Positions 3-11,105 of a stretch of DNA of 64,000 nt are shown here, one piece after another. Origin of the DNA: Bacteriovoracia bacterium (GTDB lineage: Bacteria; Bdellovibrionota; UBA1018; CAIPTA01); assembly GCA_050246755.1 (NCBI GenBank), contig JBFWVL010000001.1, positions 1,760,001 through 1,824,000 of the forward strand. Direction: 5' to 3'. Every line of letters begins with the position of its first letter. Within the stretch, counting starts at the first letter, position 1. Position numbers and translations under genes: made by a program. The notes under the pieces were generated by a model. That model saw only the letters and a list, made by a program, of their open reading frames with translations, did not search any database and was not told the origin of the DNA.

Positions 3-545
3 GGCGTGATGAACGGCGCCTCAATGATTTTTCATCGGAGCCTGCTGGCCCGGGTGGGCGGCTTCGAGGTGGCGCTGAATCAGATCACCGACGATCTCTA
101 CCTCGCTAATAAATTTAACGGGCTCGGTGCCCGGTTCGCGCTTTTGCCCAATAATGTGGTGGAGCATATTCCGGCGCAGTCTTTTTCCGTTTTCTGGAAC
201 CGCGTTCTGCGTTGGCTGTTGATCGCGCGCTGCAACCGCAAAGATCTTTTCTACGGCGCGCCCACGAGCTGGGTATGGCAATGGAACTTGCTGATGCTGC
301 TGGTTACCTGCGATTCCCGCTTCCTGCTTCTCTTCGGAGCCGCGCTGGCTGGGCGCCTCCTGTTCTCGATGATTTTTCAGGGAACGCTAGCCGGATGGCG
401 TGAATGCTGGAAGGTGATCGTGATCCCGATCTACGATTTGCTGGGGCCCGTGGCCTGGACTATCTCCCTCTTTACGAAAAATATCGTGTGGGCCGGGAAC
501 GAGCTGATCGTGAGTTCGAGTGGTACTTTGGAGCACAAGAAGTAA
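3..545 (+). CDS. GT2 glycosyltransferase, HpnI / ceramide glucosyltransferase-like (C-terminal part, 5'-truncated by the window)
   Basis: Contains GGF...ITDD (third Asp motif), an RVLRW variant of QxxRW, and C-terminal TM helices ending IVWAG. Its stop abuts the cyclase ATG (TAAATG). Confidence 0.75.
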   Translation, partial: GVMNGASMIFHRSLLARVGGFEVALNQITDDLYLANKFNGLGARFALLPNNVVEHIPAQSFSVFWNRVLRWLLIARCNRKDLFYGAPTSWVWQWNLLMLLVTCDSRFLLLFGAALAGRLLFSMIFQGTLAGWRECWKVIVIPIYDLLGPVAWTISLFTKNIVWAGNELIVSSSGTLEHKK

Positions 546-2444
546 ATGGCCTATAGCCCCGCAATGAAAACCGCGATCGCTAAAGCGGAAGATTTTCTGC
601 TCGCTGCCCAGAACAAAGATGGCTCCTGGATCGGGGAGGTGGGCCTCAATCCCGGGCCTACGGCCCAGGCGGTGATGCTCTACGCGAGCCTGCAGAAAAA
701 ATTCCCGGCTTCGGTGGCACCGAAGGCGAAGCAGTATGTGCTGCGCACCCAAAATCCCGACGGGGGATGGAGCACGCATCCTGGTGCGCCCAGCGAGGTT
801 TCGCTTACCTGTGAATGCTACGTGGCGCTACGGCTCTTGGGAGTGCCTGCATCCGATCCCGTTTGCGCCAAAGCGCGGAGCGTGATCGAAGCGGCGGGGG
901 GAACGAGCGCGGCCAATCCCTGGACCCAGCTTTATCTTGGCATCCTGGGAGTTCTTCCTTGGGAAAAAATCCAAATCATTCCCATCGAGCTCGTGCTCCA
1001 GCCCGCATTTTCACCATTTTCGATCGAGCATCTAGCCTACTGGGTGAGGGTGATCACGGTGCCGATGATGCTCGTGGGCGCAATTGGCCCTTATCCGCTC
1101 GCGAAAATGGCGGGAGAGCTGGCCGAAGAACTCTCCACCGAAAATTTCGACTCGCGAAGAAATATGGGGATGATCGGAAAAATCATCGCGAAGTGCGCCG
1201 CCGTGGCGGGCCACGTGGGAGTGCCCGGGCTGCGCGCAGTGGCGATTAAAAAATCCCTGGAGTATATCCGCAGCTGGACCGAGAAACACGGCGACTTCGG
1301 CGGCAATACTTGCACTGCGATCAACGTGATCGTGGCGTATTCGAAAATCGGCGAACATGAAGAGGAAGTGCGCAAAGGGCTCGAAGCGTTCATGAGCTAC
1401 GCGATCGAGACGGAGGAGGAATGGCGCCTGCAAACCTGCCAGAGCCATGTCTGGGACGCGGCCTTCGTGATGCAGGCTTTGCGCGGGGAAAACCCCAGTG
1501 CGAAGGTAAAGGCCGCGCTCGAGCGCGGAGCGGAGTGGCTTACCGATCGCCAGATCGTGAAAACGCGCGGGCCCTGGAGCAAGAACGTGAAGGCCGCCCC
1601 GGGGGGGTGGTGTTTCGGGAATCGCCACGAGCATTTTCCCGTAACCGATTGCACGGCGGTTTCGGTTTTGGCGCTGAAAGATACCGTGCCCGATTATTGG
1701 AATACCCGCGGCTCCCGGCTCGCGGTGGACTGGCTCGTGGGGATGCAGCACGGCACGGGCGGCTGGTCGGCCTACGAAAAATTCGAGCGCGGCGAGCTCC
1801 TCAACCGCCTGGTGACGTTCAAGGATATTCCCGATGCCCTTGTGGATCGCCCGAAGGCCGACGTTTCGGCCAAGGTAGTGGAGGCGCTCTGCGCGGCAAG
1901 GCCCTGGCATCCGGAGCTTCATTCCGTATTGGCCGATGCCCGGGCCTTCCTGCTCGCGAAACGGGAAACTTCCTACCAGGTTTGGCGGGGGAACTACGGA
2001 ATAAATTATATTTATGGAACATCCTTCGCCGCCAAGGCTTTGCGGGCCATCGATGGGCATCCCAGCGTGGACTGGGCTCCCGCTGTGCTGCGCTTTTTCT
2101 TGAATCGCCAGAACGGAGATGGGGGCTGGGGTGAGAGCGACGCCAGCTACTTTCATAAGGAGAAGGCGGGGTACGGGCCCTCCACGGTTACCCAAACGGC
2201 CTGGGCTCTATTGGGTCTTATTCACGCGTTGGATCCGTCAAACCCCCCTAAAGAGGCCTTAAAAGCGATTAAAAATGGGGTAGAGTACCTGCTTAAAAAA
2301 CAGGAGGAAGCCGGCAATTGGACCGAGGAACTGTCTTTGTGCACGGTTTTTCCGGGCATGGTTTACTTCCACTACGAATTTTATCCCGTGGTATTTCCGC
2401 TGCTCGCTTTGCGCGAAGCGGGCAAAATACTGGCAGCTCACTAG
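546..2444 (+). CDS. Class II triterpene cyclase (squalene-hopene / oxidosqualene cyclase family) with DCTA catalytic motif
   Basis: 632 aa with QW repeats (QNKDGSW, QNPDGGW, QHGTGGW, QNGDGGWGE, QEEAGNW), SHVWD, GGWCF...PVTDCTA, and GINYIYGT. Confidence 0.92.
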   Translation: MAYSPAMKTAIAKAEDFLLAAQNKDGSWIGEVGLNPGPTAQAVMLYASLQKKFPASVAPKAKQYVLRTQNPDGGWSTHPGAPSEVSLTCECYVALRLLGVPASDPVCAKARSVIEAAGGTSAANPWTQLYLGILGVLPWEKIQIIPIELVLQPAFSPFSIEHLAYWVRVITVPMMLVGAIGPYPLAKMAGELAEELSTENFDSRRNMGMIGKIIAKCAAVAGHVGVPGLRAVAIKKSLEYIRSWTEKHGDFGGNTCTAINVIVAYSKIGEHEEEVRKGLEAFMSYAIETEEEWRLQTCQSHVWDAAFVMQALRGENPSAKVKAALERGAEWLTDRQIVKTRGPWSKNVKAAPGGWCFGNRHEHFPVTDCTAVSVLALKDTVPDYWNTRGSRLAVDWLVGMQHGTGGWSAYEKFERGELLNRLVTFKDIPDALVDRPKADVSAKVVEALCAARPWHPELHSVLADARAFLLAKRETSYQVWRGNYGINYIYGTSFAAKALRAIDGHPSVDWAPAVLRFFLNRQNGDGGWGESDASYFHKEKAGYGPSTVTQTAWALLGLIHALDPSNPPKEALKAIKNGVEYLLKKQEEAGNWTEELSLCTVFPGMVYFHYEFYPVVFPLLALREAGKILAAH

Positions 2445-2538
2445 GCAAAACCTCCACACCTGTACAAAAGATAAACAAAAAATGGGGGCCGGAATCGATA
2501 TTCCCCAACGAAACTCAGGTGTTTGCCCGAATTTATAC

Positions 2539-2570
2539 TTGACTGTTTTTGTCGGATTCTTTAGTATACT
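2539..2570 (+). promoter_or_regulatory. sigma70-type promoter, probably leaderless
   Basis: TTGACT-N17-TAGTAT, with overlapping TATACT (2565-2570) 6 nt before ATG 2577; no Shine-Dalgarno. Confidence 0.55.
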
Positions 2571-2576
2571 TGCACC

Positions 2577-3992
2577 ATGTTGAAGCTAAAGCTGTTGATG
2601 TTGCTTACCGTAGGTTCCACCGCGCTCGCCGCCAATTCCTTCGCTGGAGTTATATACGATAAAGGCGGGATGCCCCGCTGTATCTCGATGGAAGGAAGAG
2701 ACCTCCTTCTCCTCTGGGATGCATCAGACCTCTACTCCCGGGAGATCTATACCCTCGACACCGGTACCTATACGGCCCGCGATACCATGAATCCGCAGAC
2801 CTATAACTGCCACAGCTTGCCCGCGAAGCTGAGCGAAGTGCCAAAATCTGATTTAACCGTTCTCGCCAAAGGCGCCAAAAGCGTGGGCCCATTCAGCCTG
2901 GCCAGCGCCCGCATGCAGAAATCCTTAGACCAAATTCGCAATGGCGCTACCGCCTACCGCGAAGAAACCGACGCAAAATCCTTCCTGCGCAAGTACCCCA
3001 TTTCGAATTTCACGCTCGAAACCAACCGCCGGCTCACCGCGATGTATGGTGTGGGCTTCGTTTCCGAGATCTACGCCGAGATCATCGCCAGCGACCCAAA
3101 CAACAAGGCATTCTCCGATTTGATCAACGGCAACCTTCGTTCCCAGGCTTCCGATCTGGCCGCCGTGAAAAAGAATCGCACCGTGATCTACGTGAAAGGA
3201 ATCGGCCACGAGCTGAACAATTCCAAGCAGTACGATGTGTTCGTGGATAATCTCCGCAAAGGCGGCGTGGAAGTGAAAATCGTGAAAACTCACTCTTGGG
3301 ACACGATCGATACGAACGCCGCGATCGTGAAGAGAGCGCTCGAGATCGAGCTCAAGAAAGGCAAAAGCCTGATCTTGATCGGCCTTAGCAAGGGCGGCTC
3401 GGAATCCCTCCTCGCGCTTTCTATGCTTAGCAAGACTCTCGATGCGAAGCCCGCTGGCTACGGAAAAGTGGAAGCCTACCTCGGCCTCTCGGGCGTATAT
3501 GGCGGATCTTTCCTTGTGGACTGGGCCGGCAGCCTTCCCCAGCGCTTGATCATGAGTCATCTCATGAAAGACGAATATGAAAAAGAAGGCAAGAAGCTGC
3601 CCACGATCGACGGAATCCTCGACGTGAAATCCGAACCCGTGGCCGACGTGATGAAGCAAGTAGCCCATAACGGCTTGCCCCAGGAAACCACTTATTTCAG
3701 CATCGTGGGCGCGATCACCGGCGATGGTCTCGCCGCTAAAACTTCCTATATTCGCAGCTTGCAGCAAGACATCATCCGCGCGCAGCTCGACGGCTACGGC
3801 GCGAACGATGGATACATCGAGTATCCCGGAACCGCGGTACCGAAAAAATTAGTGAAGAAGTCCTATATCGGTAGCTTGAATGCGAGCCATTCCCTTGTGG
3901 ACGGCACGTACCAAGGGCAGCCGGTGGTGGGTGGCCCGGAAAACGTAGTGAACGCCATCTCGATGGCCGTTTTCCAGATTCTCGCAAAGTAA
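2577..3992 (+). CDS. Secreted alpha/beta-hydrolase (lipase/acyltransferase-like)
   Basis: Sec signal peptide. VKGIG oxyanion segment, GLSKG nucleophile elbow (3381-3395), and NDG and ASH as candidate Asp/His triad members. Confidence 0.75.
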   Translation: MLKLKLLMLLTVGSTALAANSFAGVIYDKGGMPRCISMEGRDLLLLWDASDLYSREIYTLDTGTYTARDTMNPQTYNCHSLPAKLSEVPKSDLTVLAKGAKSVGPFSLASARMQKSLDQIRNGATAYREETDAKSFLRKYPISNFTLETNRRLTAMYGVGFVSEIYAEIIASDPNNKAFSDLINGNLRSQASDLAAVKKNRTVIYVKGIGHELNNSKQYDVFVDNLRKGGVEVKIVKTHSWDTIDTNAAIVKRALEIELKKGKSLILIGLSKGGSESLLALSMLSKTLDAKPAGYGKVEAYLGLSGVYGGSFLVDWAGSLPQRLIMSHLMKDEYEKEGKKLPTIDGILDVKSEPVADVMKQVAHNGLPQETTYFSIVGAITGDGLAAKTSYIRSLQQDIIRAQLDGYGANDGYIEYPGTAVPKKLVKKSYIGSLNASHSLVDGTYQGQPVVGGPENVVNAISMAVFQILAK

Positions 3993-3997
3993 TCCTC

Positions 3998-4024
3998 GTT
4001 GTTGTTGAACCAGTTGTTGTTGTT
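3998..4024 (+). repeat. (GTT)3-GAACCA-(GTT)4 trinucleotide tract in the 5' UTR
   Basis: Read directly from the sequence, immediately before the GAGG SD (4025-4028). Confidence 0.8.
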
Positions 4025-4035
4025 GAGGTTTTGAA

Positions 4036-5427
4036 ATGTCGAACGTTGTTAATAAGAATAGTCCTGACTTTTTGATCGTTGGCGCTAGCATCGCGGGCAC
4101 CGCCCTGGCGGTTGGTCTCAGAGAAAAAGGTTTCAACGTGATGCTGATCGAGCGCGAAGCTTCGCCCCGTGAGCGCTTCAAGGGAGAATTTCTCCAGCCC
4201 TTCGCCGTGAAACAATTCACGAAGCTAGGCTTCGGCGATCTCTTCCACGCCGAAGGCACCCAGAAGATCCGCGAATTGAAATTCCGCGATCTCGACAAGG
4301 ACAATAACGTGGTGAGCGAAGTACTCGTGCCCTACCTGGGCCAAGATTTTGCCGCCGTGGTTCCCCATAAAGATTTGATCACCGGCCTCCAGAAGCGCGC
4401 CACCGAGCTTTTAGGCGAAAGCTTCCTACTCGGCACCACCGCGGAACCGCTGAACCAAGCTGACGCCGATTTTCTAGAGCACCCACGCTTCCTGATCAAG
4501 CGCGAAGGCCAAGAGTCCTTCGAGATCTCACCCCGTTTCGTGATCGGCTGCGACGGACGCCAGTCGGCGGTTCGTTCCTGGATGGGGGGCCCCAAGGCTC
4601 CCGCCATGGGTTCGCCCACCTTCGGCACCCAGCCCGAATTCATCGTGGGCGCCGAGCTTCACGGCAAACGTCCACTCCCTTGCCGTTACGAAGTGATCCG
4701 TACCGCGGGCCAAGGCACAATCGCGCTTTTCCAAACCCGGCCGGAATCGCAGCGCCTCTACTGGAACGCGCTCGCCGTTCCCGGTTCGAATAAAAAAACC
4801 TGGGAGAGCTCGCTCCAGAAGATCGTTCCCGAGCTGAAAGAGCTGGCCGACCTCGATTCCTCCGACGTGGAGAACGTAGCTGGCAGCCCCGCCGACCAAG
4901 TCTGGTTCGGCCCCGCCGCGAAATCGAACTTCTTCCTCGTGGGTGACGCGCTCGCCGTTACCTCTCCGCTCGGCGGACAGGGCATGACCTGCGCCATGCG
5001 CGAAGTGGAATCTCTTCTCCAGAGTTTCCAGCAGTACGTTGATGGTGTTTCTACCCTCGGCGAAGTACGGGAAGACTACTCTTCGCTCGCCCGCTCCACC
5101 TACTACCATATCTGCCTGCTGAACTTCGGCCTCTACTATCTCTTCTACGCCTCGGGCCGTATGTTCAAGCTCGTTTCCCGCTTCATTCTCGGGGAATGGA
5201 ATAAGCATCCCGAAATTTGCGCTCGCGTGGGCGCGCTCTTCAGCGGCATGAGCTTCGACACTCCCGGCCTCGGTGAGCTTCTCCGTCTTTGGGGAATCCT
5301 ATCCTGGGTACAACCCGCCGCCCACAAGCCGGCTCCTCGCAAATCCTTCATCGGCGCCGCGCTCTACCGCCGCCGTTATACGGATGCGCGCGAGCAGCAC
5401 CGCGCCAATAAAGCGCACTCCGCGTAA
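4036..5427 (+). CDS. FAD-dependent monooxygenase, squalene epoxidase-like
   Basis: N-terminal IVGASIAG...LIERE...GEFLQP (SQLE-type GE[FL]LQP), DG motif GCDGRQS, and GD motif GDALAVTSPLGGQGMT. Confidence 0.8.
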   Translation: MSNVVNKNSPDFLIVGASIAGTALAVGLREKGFNVMLIEREASPRERFKGEFLQPFAVKQFTKLGFGDLFHAEGTQKIRELKFRDLDKDNNVVSEVLVPYLGQDFAAVVPHKDLITGLQKRATELLGESFLLGTTAEPLNQADADFLEHPRFLIKREGQESFEISPRFVIGCDGRQSAVRSWMGGPKAPAMGSPTFGTQPEFIVGAELHGKRPLPCRYEVIRTAGQGTIALFQTRPESQRLYWNALAVPGSNKKTWESSLQKIVPELKELADLDSSDVENVAGSPADQVWFGPAAKSNFFLVGDALAVTSPLGGQGMTCAMREVESLLQSFQQYVDGVSTLGEVREDYSSLARSTYYHICLLNFGLYYLFYASGRMFKLVSRFILGEWNKHPEICARVGALFSGMSFDTPGLGELLRLWGILSWVQPAAHKPAPRKSFIGAALYRRRYTDAREQHRANKAHSA

Positions 5428-5451
5428 TTCTCGATCTCTCAACAACATGGT

Positions 5452-5487
5452 GGGGCCGAACTTTGGTTCGGCCCCTTTTTCTTTTTA
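5452..5487 (+). terminator. Rho-independent terminator
   Basis: Perfect 10-bp stem GGGGCCGAAC-TTTG-GTTCGGCCCC followed by a T-tract. Confidence 0.9.
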
Positions 5488-5642: not shown

Positions 5643-6968
5643 ATGCCTTTTTCCGCCCCCCGAAAAGCAAAATCGCTTTCGCTCATTTTATTGAGCTGCG
5701 CGCTTTGCCCGGCGGCGGACGCGGCCCGGCCGATTTTAACGCCGCGAAAGGCCGCACCGCTGCTGATCTACGATATTGGGCTCGAATTGTGGGGCGCAGG
5801 CGGCGCACGCTCGCTCGCGAAAACCCCGGTGAATCCGGACAATCTCGTGGCGCGTATTCCGGAAACCGCGCTCACGGCGGAAGCGCGGCCAGACGTGCGC
5901 CTCCGCGTGAAAAAAGCCCGCGTAACGGCGCGGCCCCGCCTAATCTATACGCAAAACAATACGAAATCGGGCGCGGCCAAAACCACCAAGAACGTGGGCC
6001 GGATCCAGTGGAGCGAAGCCTACGCCTCGCTCGACATTTCGGATACGCTAGCGCTCGCCTACGGGTTGCAAAATTACCAGTGGGGCCCTTCTGAGTCGGC
6101 GAGCCCCAGCAATAGAATTTTCCGCGATACGGTAGAGGCCAAAGACGTGCTCTACGTAGTAAAGGGCAAACACCTCGTGCGCGTGAATTTTACTCCTCGG
6201 CCGGGGTGGAGCGAAGTGGCGCTCTTCGAAGTTTCCACGAACGGAAGCCCGGAATACGAAGCCCAGGAAAAGTTCGCCCAGAAGGCGCTCCTGAAATCGG
6301 AGTATTCCTGGGGCGGGGGCGCGGATTATGCCGGCATCGTTACGGGCTGGAGAAACCACGATGGGCTCTGGATCGGAGAGTACTTTAATTCCGACGTCTA
6401 CGAAGGCCTTTCGCTTTTTTTCGATATCAGCCACCAGATGGGAAGCCTGGCGTACTATCCCGTGGATAATTCCGGCGTCACCGTTCTTTCCCAGGCGCAT
6501 AAGTCCGATAAGAAAATTTATACCTTCGCCACCTTCGGCGGCCACTACGCGTTCGTGAACGGAATCGATCTCCGCTTCGAGGGAATTTTTCAGGAAGCCG
6601 GTTACAGCAAGAAACAAGTGCAGTCGGTATGGAACGCCCTCGCTTCGAACGTGCCGCAGCAGCAGGTTTTCTTCGCCATGAACTCGGCGCTGGCGTACCA
6701 GAACGGGCTCGAGTTTCCCGGGCAGAAATATCTATTCTCCTCCGTGCGCTATCCGAATTTTTTGAACGTGCGGAACTGGACGCTCTACGCGCGCGGCCTT
6801 CTTTCGCTGCAGGATTCCTCGAGCTCGGCCTTTCTGAGCTCGGAAAACGCCGTGGGCCAGCGCGGAACGATTTTCGCGAGCGTAGCCGCCTTCTCGGGAA
6901 AAATGGATTCGGAGCTGCGGGGCCTCGTGGCCTACGCGGGAATATTGGGGTACCGGCATGCCTGGTAG
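5643..6968 (+). CDS. Probable outer-membrane beta-barrel protein of the Lol-like ABC cassette
   Basis: Signal peptide, alternating aromatic/polar beta-strand pattern, C-terminal aromatic residue (GYRHAW); first gene of the cassette. Confidence 0.6.
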   Translation: MPFSAPRKAKSLSLILLSCALCPAADAARPILTPRKAAPLLIYDIGLELWGAGGARSLAKTPVNPDNLVARIPETALTAEARPDVRLRVKKARVTARPRLIYTQNNTKSGAAKTTKNVGRIQWSEAYASLDISDTLALAYGLQNYQWGPSESASPSNRIFRDTVEAKDVLYVVKGKHLVRVNFTPRPGWSEVALFEVSTNGSPEYEAQEKFAQKALLKSEYSWGGGADYAGIVTGWRNHDGLWIGEYFNSDVYEGLSLFFDISHQMGSLAYYPVDNSGVTVLSQAHKSDKKIYTFATFGGHYAFVNGIDLRFEGIFQEAGYSKKQVQSVWNALASNVPQQQVFFAMNSALAYQNGLEFPGQKYLFSSVRYPNFLNVRNWTLYARGLLSLQDSSSSAFLSSENAVGQRGTIFASVAAFSGKMDSELRGLVAYAGILGYRHAW

Positions 6969-6974
6969 GAGTGA

Positions 6975-7655
6975 GTGATGAGCAAGTCGATCATAAAATT
7001 GGAAAATATTTCGAAGGATTACCGCATGGGTCAGATCCGCGTGCCCGCGCTGAAATCCGTGAACCTGGATATTTTCGCCGGTGAATTCACCGCCGTGATC
7101 GGAGCTTCCGGCTCGGGCAAGAGCACGCTGCTGAATATGATTGGCTGCATCGATCAGCCCGATACCGGGAAGATCTTTCTCGACGGCGTGAATATCATTC
7201 CCCTGAGCGACGATAAGAAGAGCGATCTCCGGAACCAGAAAATTGGATTTATTTTTCAGTCGTTCAATCTCGTGCCGGTGCTTTCGGTATTCGAGAACGT
7301 AGAGCTTCCGCTGCTCATCAATCCCGCCATCTCGGCCGAAGACCGCAAAAAGCGCGTGCTCCAGGCCATCGACGATGTGGGTCTCCAGGCGTACGCCAAA
7401 AATCTTCCCGATCAGCTCTCGGGAGGGCAACGCCAGCGCGTGGCGATCGCCCGCGCCCTGGCCGGCAATCCCGTGCTGGTATTAGCCGACGAGCCTACCG
7501 CCAACCTCGATTCGGATTCTTCCAACAAGATCCTCGATCTGATGATCGATCTCAACTCCAAGCGCGGGATCACCTTTCTCTTCTCCACCCACGATGAAAA
7601 GCTGATGAAGCGCGTTTCCCGTATCATTCACATCAAAGACGGGGTGGTTGGCTGA
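6975..7655 (+). CDS. ABC transporter ATP-binding protein, LolD/MacB-like
   Basis: GASGSGKST, FQSFNL, LSGGQRQR, LADEPT and STHD motifs. Confidence 0.95.
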   Translation: MMSKSIIKLENISKDYRMGQIRVPALKSVNLDIFAGEFTAVIGASGSGKSTLLNMIGCIDQPDTGKIFLDGVNIIPLSDDKKSDLRNQKIGFIFQSFNLVPVLSVFENVELPLLINPAISAEDRKKRVLQAIDDVGLQAYAKNLPDQLSGGQRQRVAIARALAGNPVLVLADEPTANLDSDSSNKILDLMIDLNSKRGITFLFSTHDEKLMKRVSRIIHIKDGVVG

Positions 7656-9010
7656 TGTGGCAGTTCTGGTTCCTTTCCCTTAGAAACCTTCGTCGCAATT
7701 CCAAGCGGAATCTCGCCACGGGCTGCGCGATCGCGTTCGGTTTCTGCGGGATCCTGCTTTTGCAGGCCTACGCCTTTCGCGTGGAGAATTTTCTGCGCGT
7801 GCACACGCTCTACTCCCTGCACACTGGACATATCGTGTTGCTCGCGGACCAGGGCTTCGATAAATTTCGCTATAATCCCCGCAAGTATAGCCTCACGCCC
7901 GAAGACCAGCGCTTCATCCTGAACGCCTTGAAAGACGAGGCCGGGATCGAGGCGGTGGAGAAGCAAATCACCGGGCAGGGTCTGCTGGGGAACGGCTGTA
8001 TCTCGCTGCCGTTCATAGCGCGGGGATTAGAGCCCGCGGTCGACAAGATCCTCCGGGCGCACCCGCAAGTAAAGGAATGGATGCCCAACCAAAAATTCCT
8101 GAAATCAGGGCAGGGGCTTTCCGATTCTAAGGCAGGTGAAGGCCTACTCCTGAGTTTGGGGCTGGCTACGGCGCTAGGCAAAACCACGATGCTCGGCGAT
8201 ATTCCGCCTGGTGCGCCGATTACGCTCGTGGATTGCGCGGCTCCCGACGTGAAGGAGCAGCTGAAAAAAGATTCCAACGTGCAGCTGCTTTCCGGCACTT
8301 GGCGGGGAGCAATGTCGGCGGTGGATGGAGAAGCCATCGGAATCTTCCAGACCGGGTTCCAGGAAGCCGACAATTCCGCCATTTTGGCCGACGTGGCCTT
8401 GCTCCAAAAATTGTTCGATACCGAGAACGTGGAGAGAATTTCGGTCTGGCTTAAAGACGATAAAAAAATCCCCGAGCTTTCCAAAAAACTAAACGAAAAG
8501 TTCGCCGCCGCCGGGAAGAAATATGATCTCGTTTCTTGGAATGAAGAACGGCTTTCCCCTTACTATTTCGGCTCGAAGCAATTTCTCGACACTCTTTCGG
8601 CCTTCGTTTCGATGATCCTCGCCGCGGTGATCGCCCTCTCCGTGCTCAATTCCACCACCATGACGATCATGGAACGTTCCCAGGAAATCGGCATGTACCG
8701 CGCGATGGGATTCCGCCGCCGGCAGGTGCGACGCCTTTACCTGCAGGAATCGCTGCTGCTCTCCTTGATTTCGCTCGGGGTGGGCACGCTTCTAACCATC
8801 GCGGTGATCCTGGCCATCAATTCCGCCAATATTGTTTACTATCCGCCTGGTGTCTCAAACGGGATGGTCCTTCGTTTCGTGCTTAACGAAAGCTCTGCGG
8901 CGAAGGCCGCGGGGATGATCCTAGTCCTGGTTTTATTGGCTACGTTCATGGCGGTTTCTAGCCGGCTCCGGCAAAAACCCGCTGACTTATTGGGAGGTAC
9001 TTTACGATGA
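7655..9010 (+). CDS. ABC transporter permease, FtsX/LolC-E/MacB family
   Basis: N-terminal RNLRRN plus a TM helix, large periplasmic domain, ERSQEIGMYRAMGF, and 3 C-terminal TMs. Confidence 0.9.
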   Translation: MWQFWFLSLRNLRRNSKRNLATGCAIAFGFCGILLLQAYAFRVENFLRVHTLYSLHTGHIVLLADQGFDKFRYNPRKYSLTPEDQRFILNALKDEAGIEAVEKQITGQGLLGNGCISLPFIARGLEPAVDKILRAHPQVKEWMPNQKFLKSGQGLSDSKAGEGLLLSLGLATALGKTTMLGDIPPGAPITLVDCAAPDVKEQLKKDSNVQLLSGTWRGAMSAVDGEAIGIFQTGFQEADNSAILADVALLQKLFDTENVERISVWLKDDKKIPELSKKLNEKFAAAGKKYDLVSWNEERLSPYYFGSKQFLDTLSAFVSMILAAVIALSVLNSTTMTIMERSQEIGMYRAMGFRRRQVRRLYLQESLLLSLISLGVGTLLTIAVILAINSANIVYYPPGVSNGMVLRFVLNESSAAKAAGMILVLVLLATFMAVSSRLRQKPADLLGGTLR

Positions 9011-9777
9011 TCCGGTTTCTTATGGTTTTTTTCCTCAGCGTTTCCGCCATCGCCGCTTCGGGCCCTAAGGGCAAAGCTCCGGCTAAAGGAGAAGGTGTGA
9101 ATGCGCTCGAGCTTCTTAAGGTGAGTGACCGCGCACGCGGAGCCGCCGCCGCGCTCCAGGGCGTGAGCTGGACTTCCCAGGTGAAATCCGTGGAGGCCGA
9201 TGAGGAAAGCAGCGTAACCTACGCGATCAAGATCCGTGGGAACGACGCGCTCGCCGAAGCCATCGATCCTCCCCGCCAGAAAGGAGAGCTCGCGCTCTTC
9301 AACGACCGCACACTCTGGTTTTTTAAGCCGGGCCTGAAGAAACCCATTAGCATTTCTCTACGCCAGAAGCTCATGGGCCAGGCGGCAAACGGCGATATCG
9401 CTTCCACGCAGTACGCCCGCGACTACGAACCCGTTTCCACGAAGCAGGAAACCATCAACGGACACCTGGTTTGGCTCCTCGATCTCAAGGCGAAAGCCAA
9501 GAACGTGACCTACGACCGCATCCGTTACTGGATCACCGATAAAGAGAAGCTCGCCGTGAAAGCGGAGTTCCTCACCGTTTCTGGCCAGGTTTTTAAGATC
9601 GCGGAATTCAAGTATGGAAACACGATCGTGCTCAAAGGCACCAAGTTTCCTTTCGTGGGCGAGATGAAGATTCGCGACGCGAATAATCCCAAGAACGTGA
9701 CCACCATCACTTATAGAAATCCCCGGGAAGAAGCGCATGCTCCGAGCCTTTTCAACGTGAACAACTTGGTAAAGTAA
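9007..9777 (+). CDS. LolA-like outer-membrane lipoprotein-sorting family protein
   Basis: Signal peptide and motifs LWFFKPG..ISLRQKLMGQAANGDIA and TYDRI; lies between two permeases. Confidence 0.8.
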   Translation: MIRFLMVFFLSVSAIAASGPKGKAPAKGEGVNALELLKVSDRARGAAAALQGVSWTSQVKSVEADEESSVTYAIKIRGNDALAEAIDPPRQKGELALFNDRTLWFFKPGLKKPISISLRQKLMGQAANGDIASTQYARDYEPVSTKQETINGHLVWLLDLKAKAKNVTYDRIRYWITDKEKLAVKAEFLTVSGQVFKIAEFKYGNTIVLKGTKFPFVGEMKIRDANNPKNVTTITYRNPREEAHAPSLFNVNNLVK

Positions 9778-9779
9778 GA

Positions 9780-11105
9780 ATGTATACCTCGCGGAAACTA
9801 TTGATGCTCAAGCTGGCATCGAGAAATATCTTCCTGAACTGGCGCCATAGCTTGGCCACCGTGCTTGCGATCATGGCGGGCTTTACCTCCGTGGCGCTGC
9901 TGGACGGATTTATTTCCGCGATCAACGAAGTTTCTCAGGATGGCACCGTGAACAAGGGAATGACCGGGCATTTCTTGCTGGAAAAGCGCGGAGCCAAAGA
10001 TCATCTCTTCGAAGATCCTTGGCTCTATTCGCTGAGCAAAGAAGAGCAGGATAAAGTTTCGGGATGGCTTGAAGGTGATAAGCGCGTGAAAGCTTCGATG
10101 CGCTACCTCACGCTCAGTGGTCTCATTTCCAATGGGAAGAACTCGGCGATCTTCATTGGCGCCGGCATCGACGAAGCGCGCGGCCTGAAATTCCGCGGGG
10201 ATAAGTGGGCCTGGAATACCGTGGCCGGGAAACCTTTCTACCTCGATAATTCCGGATTCCAGATGGGCGTGGGTATGGCCACCCGGATGGACTGCAAGTT
10301 CAGCGAAAAGTACGACCTCAATAAAGACGGCTCCTATAAGGCCGAAGAGAGGCCGCTGGAATGCGCGAATCCCGTATTTCAAATTTCCGCTACCACGGAG
10401 CATGCTCAAGTGAACGCGCTCACGTTGAGCCCCACGGGCCTCGTGGATCTGCATATCCGAGAATACAACGATAAGATCATCTACTTGCCCCTCACGGCGG
10501 CCCAACAGCTCCTCGATACCGACCGGATCACTCGGTTCTCGGTACTGCTCAACGATGAAGGCACACGAAACGCCTTTGTTCGCGATTACGAAGAGAAAAT
10601 TAGGGCCTCGGGACTGGATCTTGAGGTCGTGCACTGGCTCGATCACCCCGTGGGCTCGGCTTCCAAAGGCGGGATGGCAGTGTTGAACATGTTCCGTTGG
10701 CTCTTCCTCACGATCGTGGCGGTGGTGGCCGTGATGTCGGTGGCTAATTCGCTGATGAAGAGCATCAACGAGCGGATCCGGGAGATCGGTACCCTGCGCA
10801 GCTATGGCTTCCGGCGTACCGATATCGTTCTTCTATTTTCGTTTGAAGGTCTGCTGCTGGGGTTCTTCGCCTGCCTGTTGGGAATAATCCTGAGTTCCGC
10901 CCTGGCTTTTGCGATTTCCAATGGAGGAATGACGTTCAATGCCGGCGTGATGAGCACGCCGCTGGCCATCAAGATCGATCTCGCGCTGGGCGTATGGGCA
11001 GGTTCTTCCTTCGTGCTGTGCCTGGTAACGTTCCTGGCTTCCTGGATTGTTTCCCGCCGGGCGGCGAAGATGACGATCGCCGATGCCTTACGGCATATCG
11101 CCTAA
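9780..11105 (+). CDS. ABC transporter permease, FtsX/LolC-E/MacB family
   Basis: RNIFLNWR plus TM, ERIREIGTLRSYGF, and C-terminal IADALRH. Confidence 0.9.
   Translation: MYTSRKLLMLKLASRNIFLNWRHSLATVLAIMAGFTSVALLDGFISAINEVSQDGTVNKGMTGHFLLEKRGAKDHLFEDPWLYSLSKEEQDKVSGWLEGDKRVKASMRYLTLSGLISNGKNSAIFIGAGIDEARGLKFRGDKWAWNTVAGKPFYLDNSGFQMGVGMATRMDCKFSEKYDLNKDGSYKAEERPLECANPVFQISATTEHAQVNALTLSPTGLVDLHIREYNDKIIYLPLTAAQQLLDTDRITRFSVLLNDEGTRNAFVRDYEEKIRASGLDLEVVHWLDHPVGSASKGGMAVLNMFRWLFLTIVAVVAVMSVANSLMKSINERIREIGTLRSYGFRRTDIVLLFSFEGLLLGFFACLLGIILSSALAFAISNGGMTFNAGVMSTPLAIKIDLALGVWAGSSFVLCLVTFLASWIVSRRAAKMTIADALRHIA

Follow-up and report, generated by a model that had tools for sequence, protein, structure and literature searches.

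Does a triterpene cyclase that carries the acid motif of oxidosqualene cyclases (OSCs) on a body resembling squalene-hopene cyclases (SHCs) use squalene or its epoxide, and with which partner enzymes does it work? The question is raised by a gene cluster at the start of a 64,000 nt stretch (the window) of a Bacteriovoracia bacterium genome (G000, 95.7% complete; contig C1:1760001–1824000). An initial annotation had read four genes there, for a glycosyltransferase (GT), a cyclase with a DCTA motif, a secreted acyl-hydrolase and a squalene epoxidase, as one pathway to a triterpenoid glycolipid. By the sequence tests that define the two families, the cyclase belongs to a bounded group that is neither SHC nor OSC, and this group is co-inherited with its own clade of squalene-epoxidase-like monooxygenases. 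On balance we favour a pathway in which squalene synthase, the epoxidase-like enzyme and the cyclase would make a 3-hydroxy triterpenoid, probably not a sterol, with the GT possibly glycosylating its hydroxyl. The features on which this reading draws are the following.

Contig C1:1758172–1759260, + strand: squalene synthase, upstream of the GT gene and outside the window (PF00494, 86 bits)
Window 3–545, + strand: GT21 glycosyltransferase, C-terminal part (full gene 387 amino acids (aa), beginning 618 bp before the window); accessory part
Window 546–2444, + strand: class II triterpene cyclase, SHC-like body with OSC-type VTDCTA (632 aa); core part
Window 1623–1640, + strand: codons of the catalytic motif V360-T-D362-C-T-A (V360, T361, D362 and C363 invariant in 30/30 aligned members)
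Window 4036–5427, + strand: divergent squalene-epoxidase-like FAD monooxygenase (463 aa); core part

A cyclase group with an OSC-type motif and an SHC-type body

The cyclase has the marks of the class II triterpene cyclase superfamily: a beta-gamma double alpha6-alpha6 barrel, QW motifs, a catalytic aspartate, and both PF13249 and PF13243. Its structural model (pLDDT 92.6) shows the full two-domain fold, with template modelling (TM) scores of 0.89 to SHC and OSC against at most 0.60 to sesqui- and diterpene cyclases. TM by target is 0.90 for SHC and 0.77 for OSC, and a search of the PDB gave E = 4e-78 for SHC against 8e-45 for OSC. With the SHC model TIGR01507 it scores 398.6 bits, under the cut-off of 431.1, and it exceeds the cut-off for the joint family TIGR01787 only; with the OSC model TIGR03463 it scores 261 bits against a cut-off of 851, the scores of 28 myxobacterial OSCs being 537–849.

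The motif PVTDCTA (residues 359–365) aligns with PDVDDTA of Alicyclobacillus acidocaldarius SHC and VSDCTA of human OSC. Published initiation motifs are DCTAE for OSCs and DXDDTA for squalene cyclases (PMC10320381). Among the best 120 of 297 matches in a homologue search, the top 27 comprise the protein itself and 26 others at 42–54% identity, all with VTDC, after which identity drops to 32–35%. Leaving out one partial match and adding four sequences taken from genomes and the representative of one 50% cluster, the clade has 31 members. VTDC is present in 31/31, with a residue after TA that is not the Glu of OSCs, and DxDD in 0/31; in the reference SHC-type rows the first Asp is kept in 142/145 and the last in 134/145. 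Mean identity of the clade is 30% to SHC and 27% to OSC. Scans of genomes and of metagenome contigs with the clade alignment returned at least 80 loci each at 29–37% identity through a generic QW pattern (SHC references only), with none at clade-level identity among the matches listed, and an Atlas search with the cyclase returned only general SHC clusters.

When the clade was compared with 46 OSC and 145 SHC-type rows, 27 columns separated OSC from SHC, and at these the clade is SHC-like in 14 (mostly indels), OSC-like in seven and neither in six. The OSC-like columns include both motif positions, Y404 and E405. The OSC-specific indels, including a deletion at SHC G600, are absent from the clade, which has D433-V434 where OSC has E532/C533. 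Residues Y478, V595, V600, N248, K437 and G352 are clade-specific invariants, standing at SHC W489, G600, F605, I261, H451 and Q366, respectively, and the equivalent of SHC P263 is Cys in the cyclase. Several cavity aromatics are changed in the clade; W297, F351, Y484, F596, Y604 and Y607 are conserved. A plain SHC annotation was rejected because the protein lacks DxDD and falls under the TIGR01507 cut-off, as was a plain OSC annotation, since the protein is under the TIGR03463 cut-off, lies outside the OSC clade and has none of the OSC indels.

Engineered SHCs bear on these positions: the D377C variant gives a monocyclic product from squalene with low activity and has lost pentacyclisation (PMC6127371), the D377C/V380E/V381A variant cyclises oxidosqualene, and SHC with G600 deleted becomes specific for (3S)-oxidosqualene (both PMC9634032).

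A second cyclase gene lies elsewhere in G000 (C2:26710–28599, – strand). Its product is very divergent, carries a DVDD motif and has no obvious hpn genes nearby; in trees it forms a long branch near the SqhC-like group, and similar cyclases occur in genomes G038 and G347.

Linkage to an epoxidase-like monooxygenase

The initial annotation had taken the epoxidase-like gene and the DCTA-type cyclase to support each other, and the distribution of the two bears this out. In a survey of 127 genomes of the class, the clade profile matched 13 at E up to 1e-100; seven of these matches score above 500 bits and have VTDCTA, and the other six have DxDD. The epoxidase occurs in exactly the same seven genomes, as a neighbour of the cyclase in each. 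At the six loci besides that of G000 it is divergently adjacent (five loci) or separated by the GT gene only (genome G107), so that adjacency holds at 6/6 other clade loci against 0/14 of the other cyclase loci fetched. Among metagenome proteins, nine of 19 cyclase contigs of at least 10 kb are identical in length to an epoxidase contig, an indirect match to which one species-level cluster contributes several; two of the nine belong to one such cluster and one is the protein of G084, leaving seven that are new. Pairwise identities of cyclase and epoxidase co-vary over 14 pairs (rho 0.61, 0/5000 shuffles; kin are not independent) and over nine core pairs (rho 0.40, p 0.027). In a draw of 401 genomes from the phylum the epoxidase was found in seven. 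The cyclase clade is co-inherited with its own epoxidase clade.

The monooxygenase is squalene-epoxidase-like by sequence, its closest characterised relative being human squalene monooxygenase (SQLE), which is the best PDB match (E = 4e-16; next 5e-8) and scores 125 bits with a 37-member profile of the family, against 83 for the next structure. PF08491 matches 23/37 members (E up to 0.001), the window protein being just above the cut-off. The family is small and sharply bounded (39/40 matches) and forms a clade apart from the OSC-linked myxobacterial monooxygenases. A GE(F/Y)LQP-type motif and a C-terminal LxxxLYxxF helix are common to this family, human SQLE and the OSC-linked myxobacterial enzymes. 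Q168 of human SQLE is kept.

In the sister subclade (loci L205–L209), TolC-like and RND efflux genes are found close to the cyclase-epoxidase pair, joined at three loci by a TetR-like regulator (labels by sequence appearance). Fusions of myxobacterial-type squalene monooxygenase and OSC were also seen (L283, L293, P0300, P0314, P0322, P0331, P0336), and some OSC loci have a second monooxygenase-like domain.

Phylogenetic position of the cyclase

A FastTree reconstruction of 222 sequences places the 31 members in one clade joined with OSC (0.989), a grouping that survives removal of 42 active-site columns and the use of each domain alone (0.92–0.98). Under LG+C20 in IQ-TREE with motif columns removed, the clade again groups with OSC, both in an unrooted tree of 59 of these sequences (13 columns removed; Shimodaira-Hasegawa approximate likelihood ratio test (SH-aLRT) 99) and in a rooted tree of 43 rows (SH-aLRT 99, stem 0.47), the latter made of 40 of the 59 rows plus one SqhC-like and two verrucomicrobial SHC-like outgroup rows. 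The clade sits outside an OSC clade of support 100. The IQ-TREE analyses were quick runs without bootstrap, with a two-sequence outgroup and with no labelled eukaryotic OSC, squalene-tetrahymanol cyclase or epoxy-polyprenyl cyclase; a planctomycete outgroup search through genome G427 gave ordinary SHC-level matches only.

The place of the cyclase clade between hopene and sterol cyclases, on which the initial annotation did not remark, is the more striking feature of the cluster. A position as sister to OSC is the preferred reading of these trees. The competing account, which concerns evolution only, would have the clade branch off from SHC and evolve fast, arrive at the OSC motif by convergence once an epoxidase had been gained, and be pulled towards OSC in trees as a long-branch artefact. 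Approximately unbiased (AU) tests do not reject a grouping with core SHCs (p 0.286 and 0.204), which weighs against the sister position, as do the long stems (0.7–0.8 and 1.1–1.3), the slightly higher identity to SHC, and possible reversions to epoxide use within SHC reported by McShea et al. (PMC12414744). The offshoot account has to contend with trees constrained in its favour being 12.9 and 14.4 log units worse, and with an OSC grouping that holds without active-site columns, for each domain and under LG+C20, unrooted and rooted; we give it a little less than an even chance. More tentative still is a full scenario built on the sister position, in which the clade would be what survives of a lineage sister to all sterol cyclases, the epoxide-specific site having been gained before the changes for the sterol boat fold, with its own epoxidase lineage co-inherited and some members making a saponin-like glycolipid through a GT21 with a new acceptor. 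It is debated whether the cyclases of sterol synthesis descend from those of hopene synthesis or emerged in parallel with them, and which substrate, epoxide or alkene, was used first (PMC12414744). A third deep lineage that combines an acid of OSC type with an SHC-type body and is tied to its own epoxidase bears on that question.

Squalene supply

A squalene synthase gene, which the initial annotation had proposed to look for upstream of the window, is present directly upstream of the GT gene. It is the sole PF00494 match in the G000 genome, and 10/10 PDB matches of its product are squalene synthases or trypanosomal homologues. Insertion of the cyclase module next to a synthase already native to the host family is likely, because orthologues of the synthase occur in 6/8 family relatives of G000 and the clade cyclase in 0/8. 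The G000 genome has HMG-CoA reductase, a gene of the mevalonate pathway, and a search of it for DXR found none. Neither a P450 nor an HpnH above its cut-off (best 69, cut-off 225) was found in the genome, extending to the whole assembly what had been noted for the window, that sterol demethylase and hpnH are missing.

The glycosyltransferase

The GT matches PF13506 (96 bits) and the HpnI model TIGR03472 (173 bits, under the cut-off of 310). The catalytic motifs PxKG, NxK, DxD, xDD and RxxRW are intact, and hydrophobic segments are present at both termini. GT21 matches occur in 40/127 genomes of the class, and only that of G107 is an orthologue (40% identity), located between epoxidase and cyclase. 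The cluster GT was found beside the clade cyclase in 2/7 genomes and in three further sets of metagenome contigs, linked with several cyclase subgroups. The ten GTs of the cluster type group in a single clade (SH-aLRT 99), distinct from the GT21s found across the class, the latter sampled from 17 of 38 other genomes. Six of nine GT clusters are on contigs identical in length to one with a clade cyclase (four, including the one described here) or with an epoxidase only (two); the remaining three lack such a match, and two of these lie on contigs shorter than 4 kb. By sequence, the cluster GT is thus an accessory, cyclase-linked GT21 clade of its own.

HpnI works on extended hopanoids, at their side chain, and these hopanoids need HpnH. 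A role of this kind was rejected for the cluster GT, as it scores under the HpnI cut-off and HpnH is not above its own.

Among the class-wide GT21 paralogues, 8/10 loci inspected carry a PHP-like gene, a GH1-like glycosidase gene or both (labels by sequence appearance). This PHP-GT21-GH1 arrangement (L234, L236, L237, L239, L241, L244, L247, L249) possibly serves glycolipid synthesis and turnover. In G000 itself, locus L299:1426–3769 (C1, about 1,623,500–1,625,900) has a serine palmitoyltransferase (SPT)-like gene followed by an open reading frame that we take to resemble bacterial ceramide synthase (no NCBIfam match), a pair likely to serve sphingolipid synthesis.

Layout of the locus and the hydrolase

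The remaining features of the cluster are as follows.

Window 2539–2567, + strand: weak sigma70-like promoter match before the hydrolase gene
Window 2577–3992, + strand: alpha/beta hydrolase-like protein with a signal-peptide-like N-terminus (471 aa); probable passenger
Window 5452–5487, + strand: intrinsic terminator, a 10 bp stem at 5452–5475 followed by a T-tail

The four genes are co-oriented on the + strand and end at a strong terminator (stem energy –22 kcal/mol, z –4.96; 0/200 shuffles equally good), just as the initial annotation described. The translational coupling it proposed for GT and cyclase holds here in so far as the GT stop codon (543–545) directly abuts the cyclase ATG (546–548). 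Coupling is not a conserved trait, because the two genes are convergent in G107 and database entries place the cyclase start at Met7; a conserved coupling was accordingly rejected. Usage at fourfold sites differs sharply between GT and cyclase on one side and hydrolase and epoxidase on the other (p 9e-8). Four sigma70-like sites were found against 3.3 expected by chance, and the one at 2539–2567 is weak alone. Taken together, the fourfold-site difference and this candidate internal promoter suggest two modules, and a single four-gene operon was rejected on the same two grounds.

The hydrolase has a GLSKG sequence at residues 269–273 (Ser271) and conserved Asp411 and His438, with no match in Pfam, NCBIfam or the PDB; PGAP1/LCAT-like folds among its look-alikes are leads only. 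Its nearest Atlas cluster consists mostly of Bdellovibrionota proteins. Homologues are present in seven other genomes of the class, of which only G107 also has the clade cyclase, with the hydrolase gene on another contig. A hydrolase-epoxidase link across the two G107 contigs was not found: their ends do not overlap, and another gene precedes the epoxidase. At the six other clade loci the hydrolase is absent (0/6), and we regard it as most likely a passenger.

That leaves an acyl-transfer or deacylation step, as first proposed for this enzyme, unsupported, and of the four genes whose co-conservation had been in question, only cyclase and epoxidase stay together throughout (7/7), the GT in a subset. 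The idea of a single pathway through all four genes, in which a triterpenol glycoside is acylated or deacylated by the secreted hydrolase, is highly improbable. It would explain why the hydrolase lies inside the cluster with the codon pattern of the epoxidase, unlike GT and cyclase, and fits both the PGAP1/LCAT-type fold lead and the best class homologue being that of G107, the other GT-bearing genome; set against this are its absence from the other clade loci, the 6/7 other host genomes without a clade cyclase, the unlinked G107 gene, and a nucleophile elbow poorly conserved among six homologues.

A GTT-rich short repeat tract (window 3993–4035) separates hydrolase and epoxidase. Past the terminator, a unit at window 5643–11105 encodes a 441 aa protein without a family match, an ABC ATPase, two FtsX-type permeases and a LolA-like protein; the 441 aa gene was not found at 20 other loci checked.

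Proposed pathway and alternatives

In the pathway we favour, squalene synthase would convert farnesyl diphosphate to squalene, the epoxidase-like monooxygenase would turn squalene into 2,3-oxidosqualene in an oxygen-dependent step, and the VTDCTA cyclase would form from it a 3-hydroxy triterpenoid, probably not a sterol, whose hydroxyl the GT21 enzyme may glycosylate. The cyclase is likely to protonate the epoxide only, since the equivalents of SHC D374 and D377 are lost. Substrate folding is probably all-chair and SHC-like, as the cyclase has none of the indels specific to OSC, the deletion at SHC G600 among them.

In SHC, changes at F605, I261 and P263 shorten or redirect the cyclisation cascade, and W489 mutants likewise affect it. 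Because these four positions (F605, W489, I261, P263) are V, Y, N and C in the cyclase, there is an even chance that the predicted skeleton differs from plain hopanol, for example a dammarane-type or other truncated ring system. In the GT-bearing subset, glycosylation to an amphipathic membrane glycolipid is about equally balanced for and against.

Several observations weigh against this pathway. PF00494 was not found in 4/6 other clade genomes (G019, which is 97% complete, G076, G077 and G084), and the sole match in G038 is an HpnD/CrtB-like fragment at the end of a contig. The invariant Lys437, at the position of SHC H451 (or Arg), could leave the acid with enough strength to act on squalene. 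The monooxygenase scores 21.6 bits with PF08491, compared with 45–89 in myxobacterial enzymes, and has L81 and F232 in place of Y195 and Y335, both important in human SQLE (PMC6327030); myxobacterial enzymes lack Q168 and Y195 but keep Y335. The link between cyclase and epoxidase has gaps as well, beyond the indirectness of the contig-length matches: in G347 (97% complete), one of the seven epoxidase carriers in the phylum draw, the epoxidase gene stops short of a contig end by 53 bp and the one cyclase type found is DVDD, and the closest epoxidase relatives (70% identity) lie on contigs with GT relatives, with no cyclase of 55–99% identity among the matches listed. Finally, the cluster GT is absent from 5/7 clade genomes, and the SPT-like gene of G000 (498 bits, cut-off 640) makes ceramide a possible acceptor, so that the proposal of a triterpenol glycosyltransferase stands as far as a cyclase-linked GT clade goes and falls short in its distribution and in the identity of its acceptor.

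These points feed three alternatives. The pair might make a free 3-hydroxy triterpenoid while the GT glucosylates ceramide, or modifies some other lipid, within the same membrane-lipid island. GT21 is the ceramide-glucosyltransferase family, two relatives of the GT are so named in the sources, G000 and G107 both carry SPT-like genes with the cluster GT as their only strong GT21 match, most clade genomes lack the GT, and two GT relatives share a contig with an epoxidase and no cyclase found. We nevertheless consider it unlikely: the cluster GTs are a clade separate from the class-wide PHP-GT21-GH1 enzymes, two-thirds of their clusters (6/9) are length-matched to a clade cyclase or epoxidase contig, and the GT is not distributed in step with SPT, given that SPT-like genes occur without any GT21 match in G019, G038 and G084. 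Less probable again is that the pair acts on squalene obtained by scavenging or on a different polyprenyl chain, or goes no further than a mono- to tricyclic alcohol of achilleol type. The clade genomes without a squalene synthase found, the monocyclic product of SHC D377C (PMC6127371) and the changed cavity aromatics and epoxidase tyrosines would fit this, whereas the two-domain fold, with its TM scores far closer to SHC and OSC than to sesqui- and diterpene cyclases, and the six conserved aromatics named above count against it; moreover, G000 and G107 have squalene synthase, and gaps elsewhere may reflect incomplete assemblies. A sterol (protosterol) synthase, yielding lanosterol, cycloartenol or parkeol for a steryl glucoside, is quite improbable. 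VTDCTA, Y404 and E405 are as in OSC, the clade groups with OSC in all free trees, and early-branching bacterial OSCs make sterols (PMC12414744); yet TIGR03463 gives a score far below the cut-off and below every myxobacterial OSC, SHC-like diagnostic columns outnumber OSC-like ones (14 to 7), the OSC insertions and G600 deletion are missing, D433-V434 replaces the OSC E-C pair, and the genome has no P450.

Triterpane biomarkers that depend on oxygen could have a new bacterial source in the triterpenoid predicted here. If the favoured pathway is true, it would provide a use for the mevalonate and squalene synthase genes in those Bdellovibrionota-like bacteria for which steroid production is not known, and acceptance of a triterpenol would be new to the GT21 family. 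Oligoflexia have been described as having mevalonate pathway and squalene synthase genes with steroid production not known (Hoshino and Gaucher 2021, PMC8237579).

Comparison with known systems

No description of the clade, or of a bacterial cyclase-epoxidase-GT21 cluster, was found in the literature outside subscription journals and bioRxiv supplements, and none of eight clade motifs was found in the available part of the supplement of McShea et al. (PMC12414744), a weak negative as long alignment runs there are incomplete. The cyclase is apparently undescribed.

The GT shares its catalytic motifs and terminal hydrophobic segments with GT21 ceramide glucosyltransferases and HpnI, and differs from HpnI in score, in forming a separate clade and in having no HpnH above cut-off in the genome. 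The closest cyclase in sequence and fold is A. acidocaldarius SHC (E = 4e-78, TM 0.89–0.90), which has the same length and indel pattern, and of which the equivalents of W169, D447, V448, F601, Y609 and Y612 are kept. The cyclase departs from it in having VTDC for DxDD, in the equivalents of W489Y, G600V, F605V, I261N and H451K, in its linkage to an epoxidase, and in a genome without HpnH above cut-off.

An SHC-type body acting on oxidosqualene, predicted here, has been shown for the oxidosqualene-only, hopanol-forming cyclases of strains HM163 and HM164 (McShea 2025, PMC12414744). Those enzymes retain DxD[D] and belong to the SHC crown, and the available text reports no linked epoxidase or GT. 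A squalene monooxygenase (SQMO) next to a non-OSC cyclase homologue is also known from Plesiocystis and Enhygromyxa, where it stands beside an 'SHC-like' enzyme (Santana-Molina 2020, PMC7306690). Only planctomycetal-type SHC-like sequences keep the catalytic residues according to that source, whereas the present clade keeps the catalytic Asp and is far from two verrucomicrobial SHC-like sequences; from the myxobacterial ones it is set apart by their description only.

Bacterial SQMO-OSC sterol clusters of myxobacteria, Methylococcales and Gemmata (PMC7306690, PMC8237579) resemble the locus in bringing together squalene synthase, a monooxygenase and an xxDCTA cyclase, with precursors from the mevalonate route. 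Compared with the clusters described in those sources, the cyclase here lies outside the OSC clade and has none of the OSC indels, the epoxidase forms a separate clade, no P450 was found in the genome, and a GT21 glycosyltransferase is attached.

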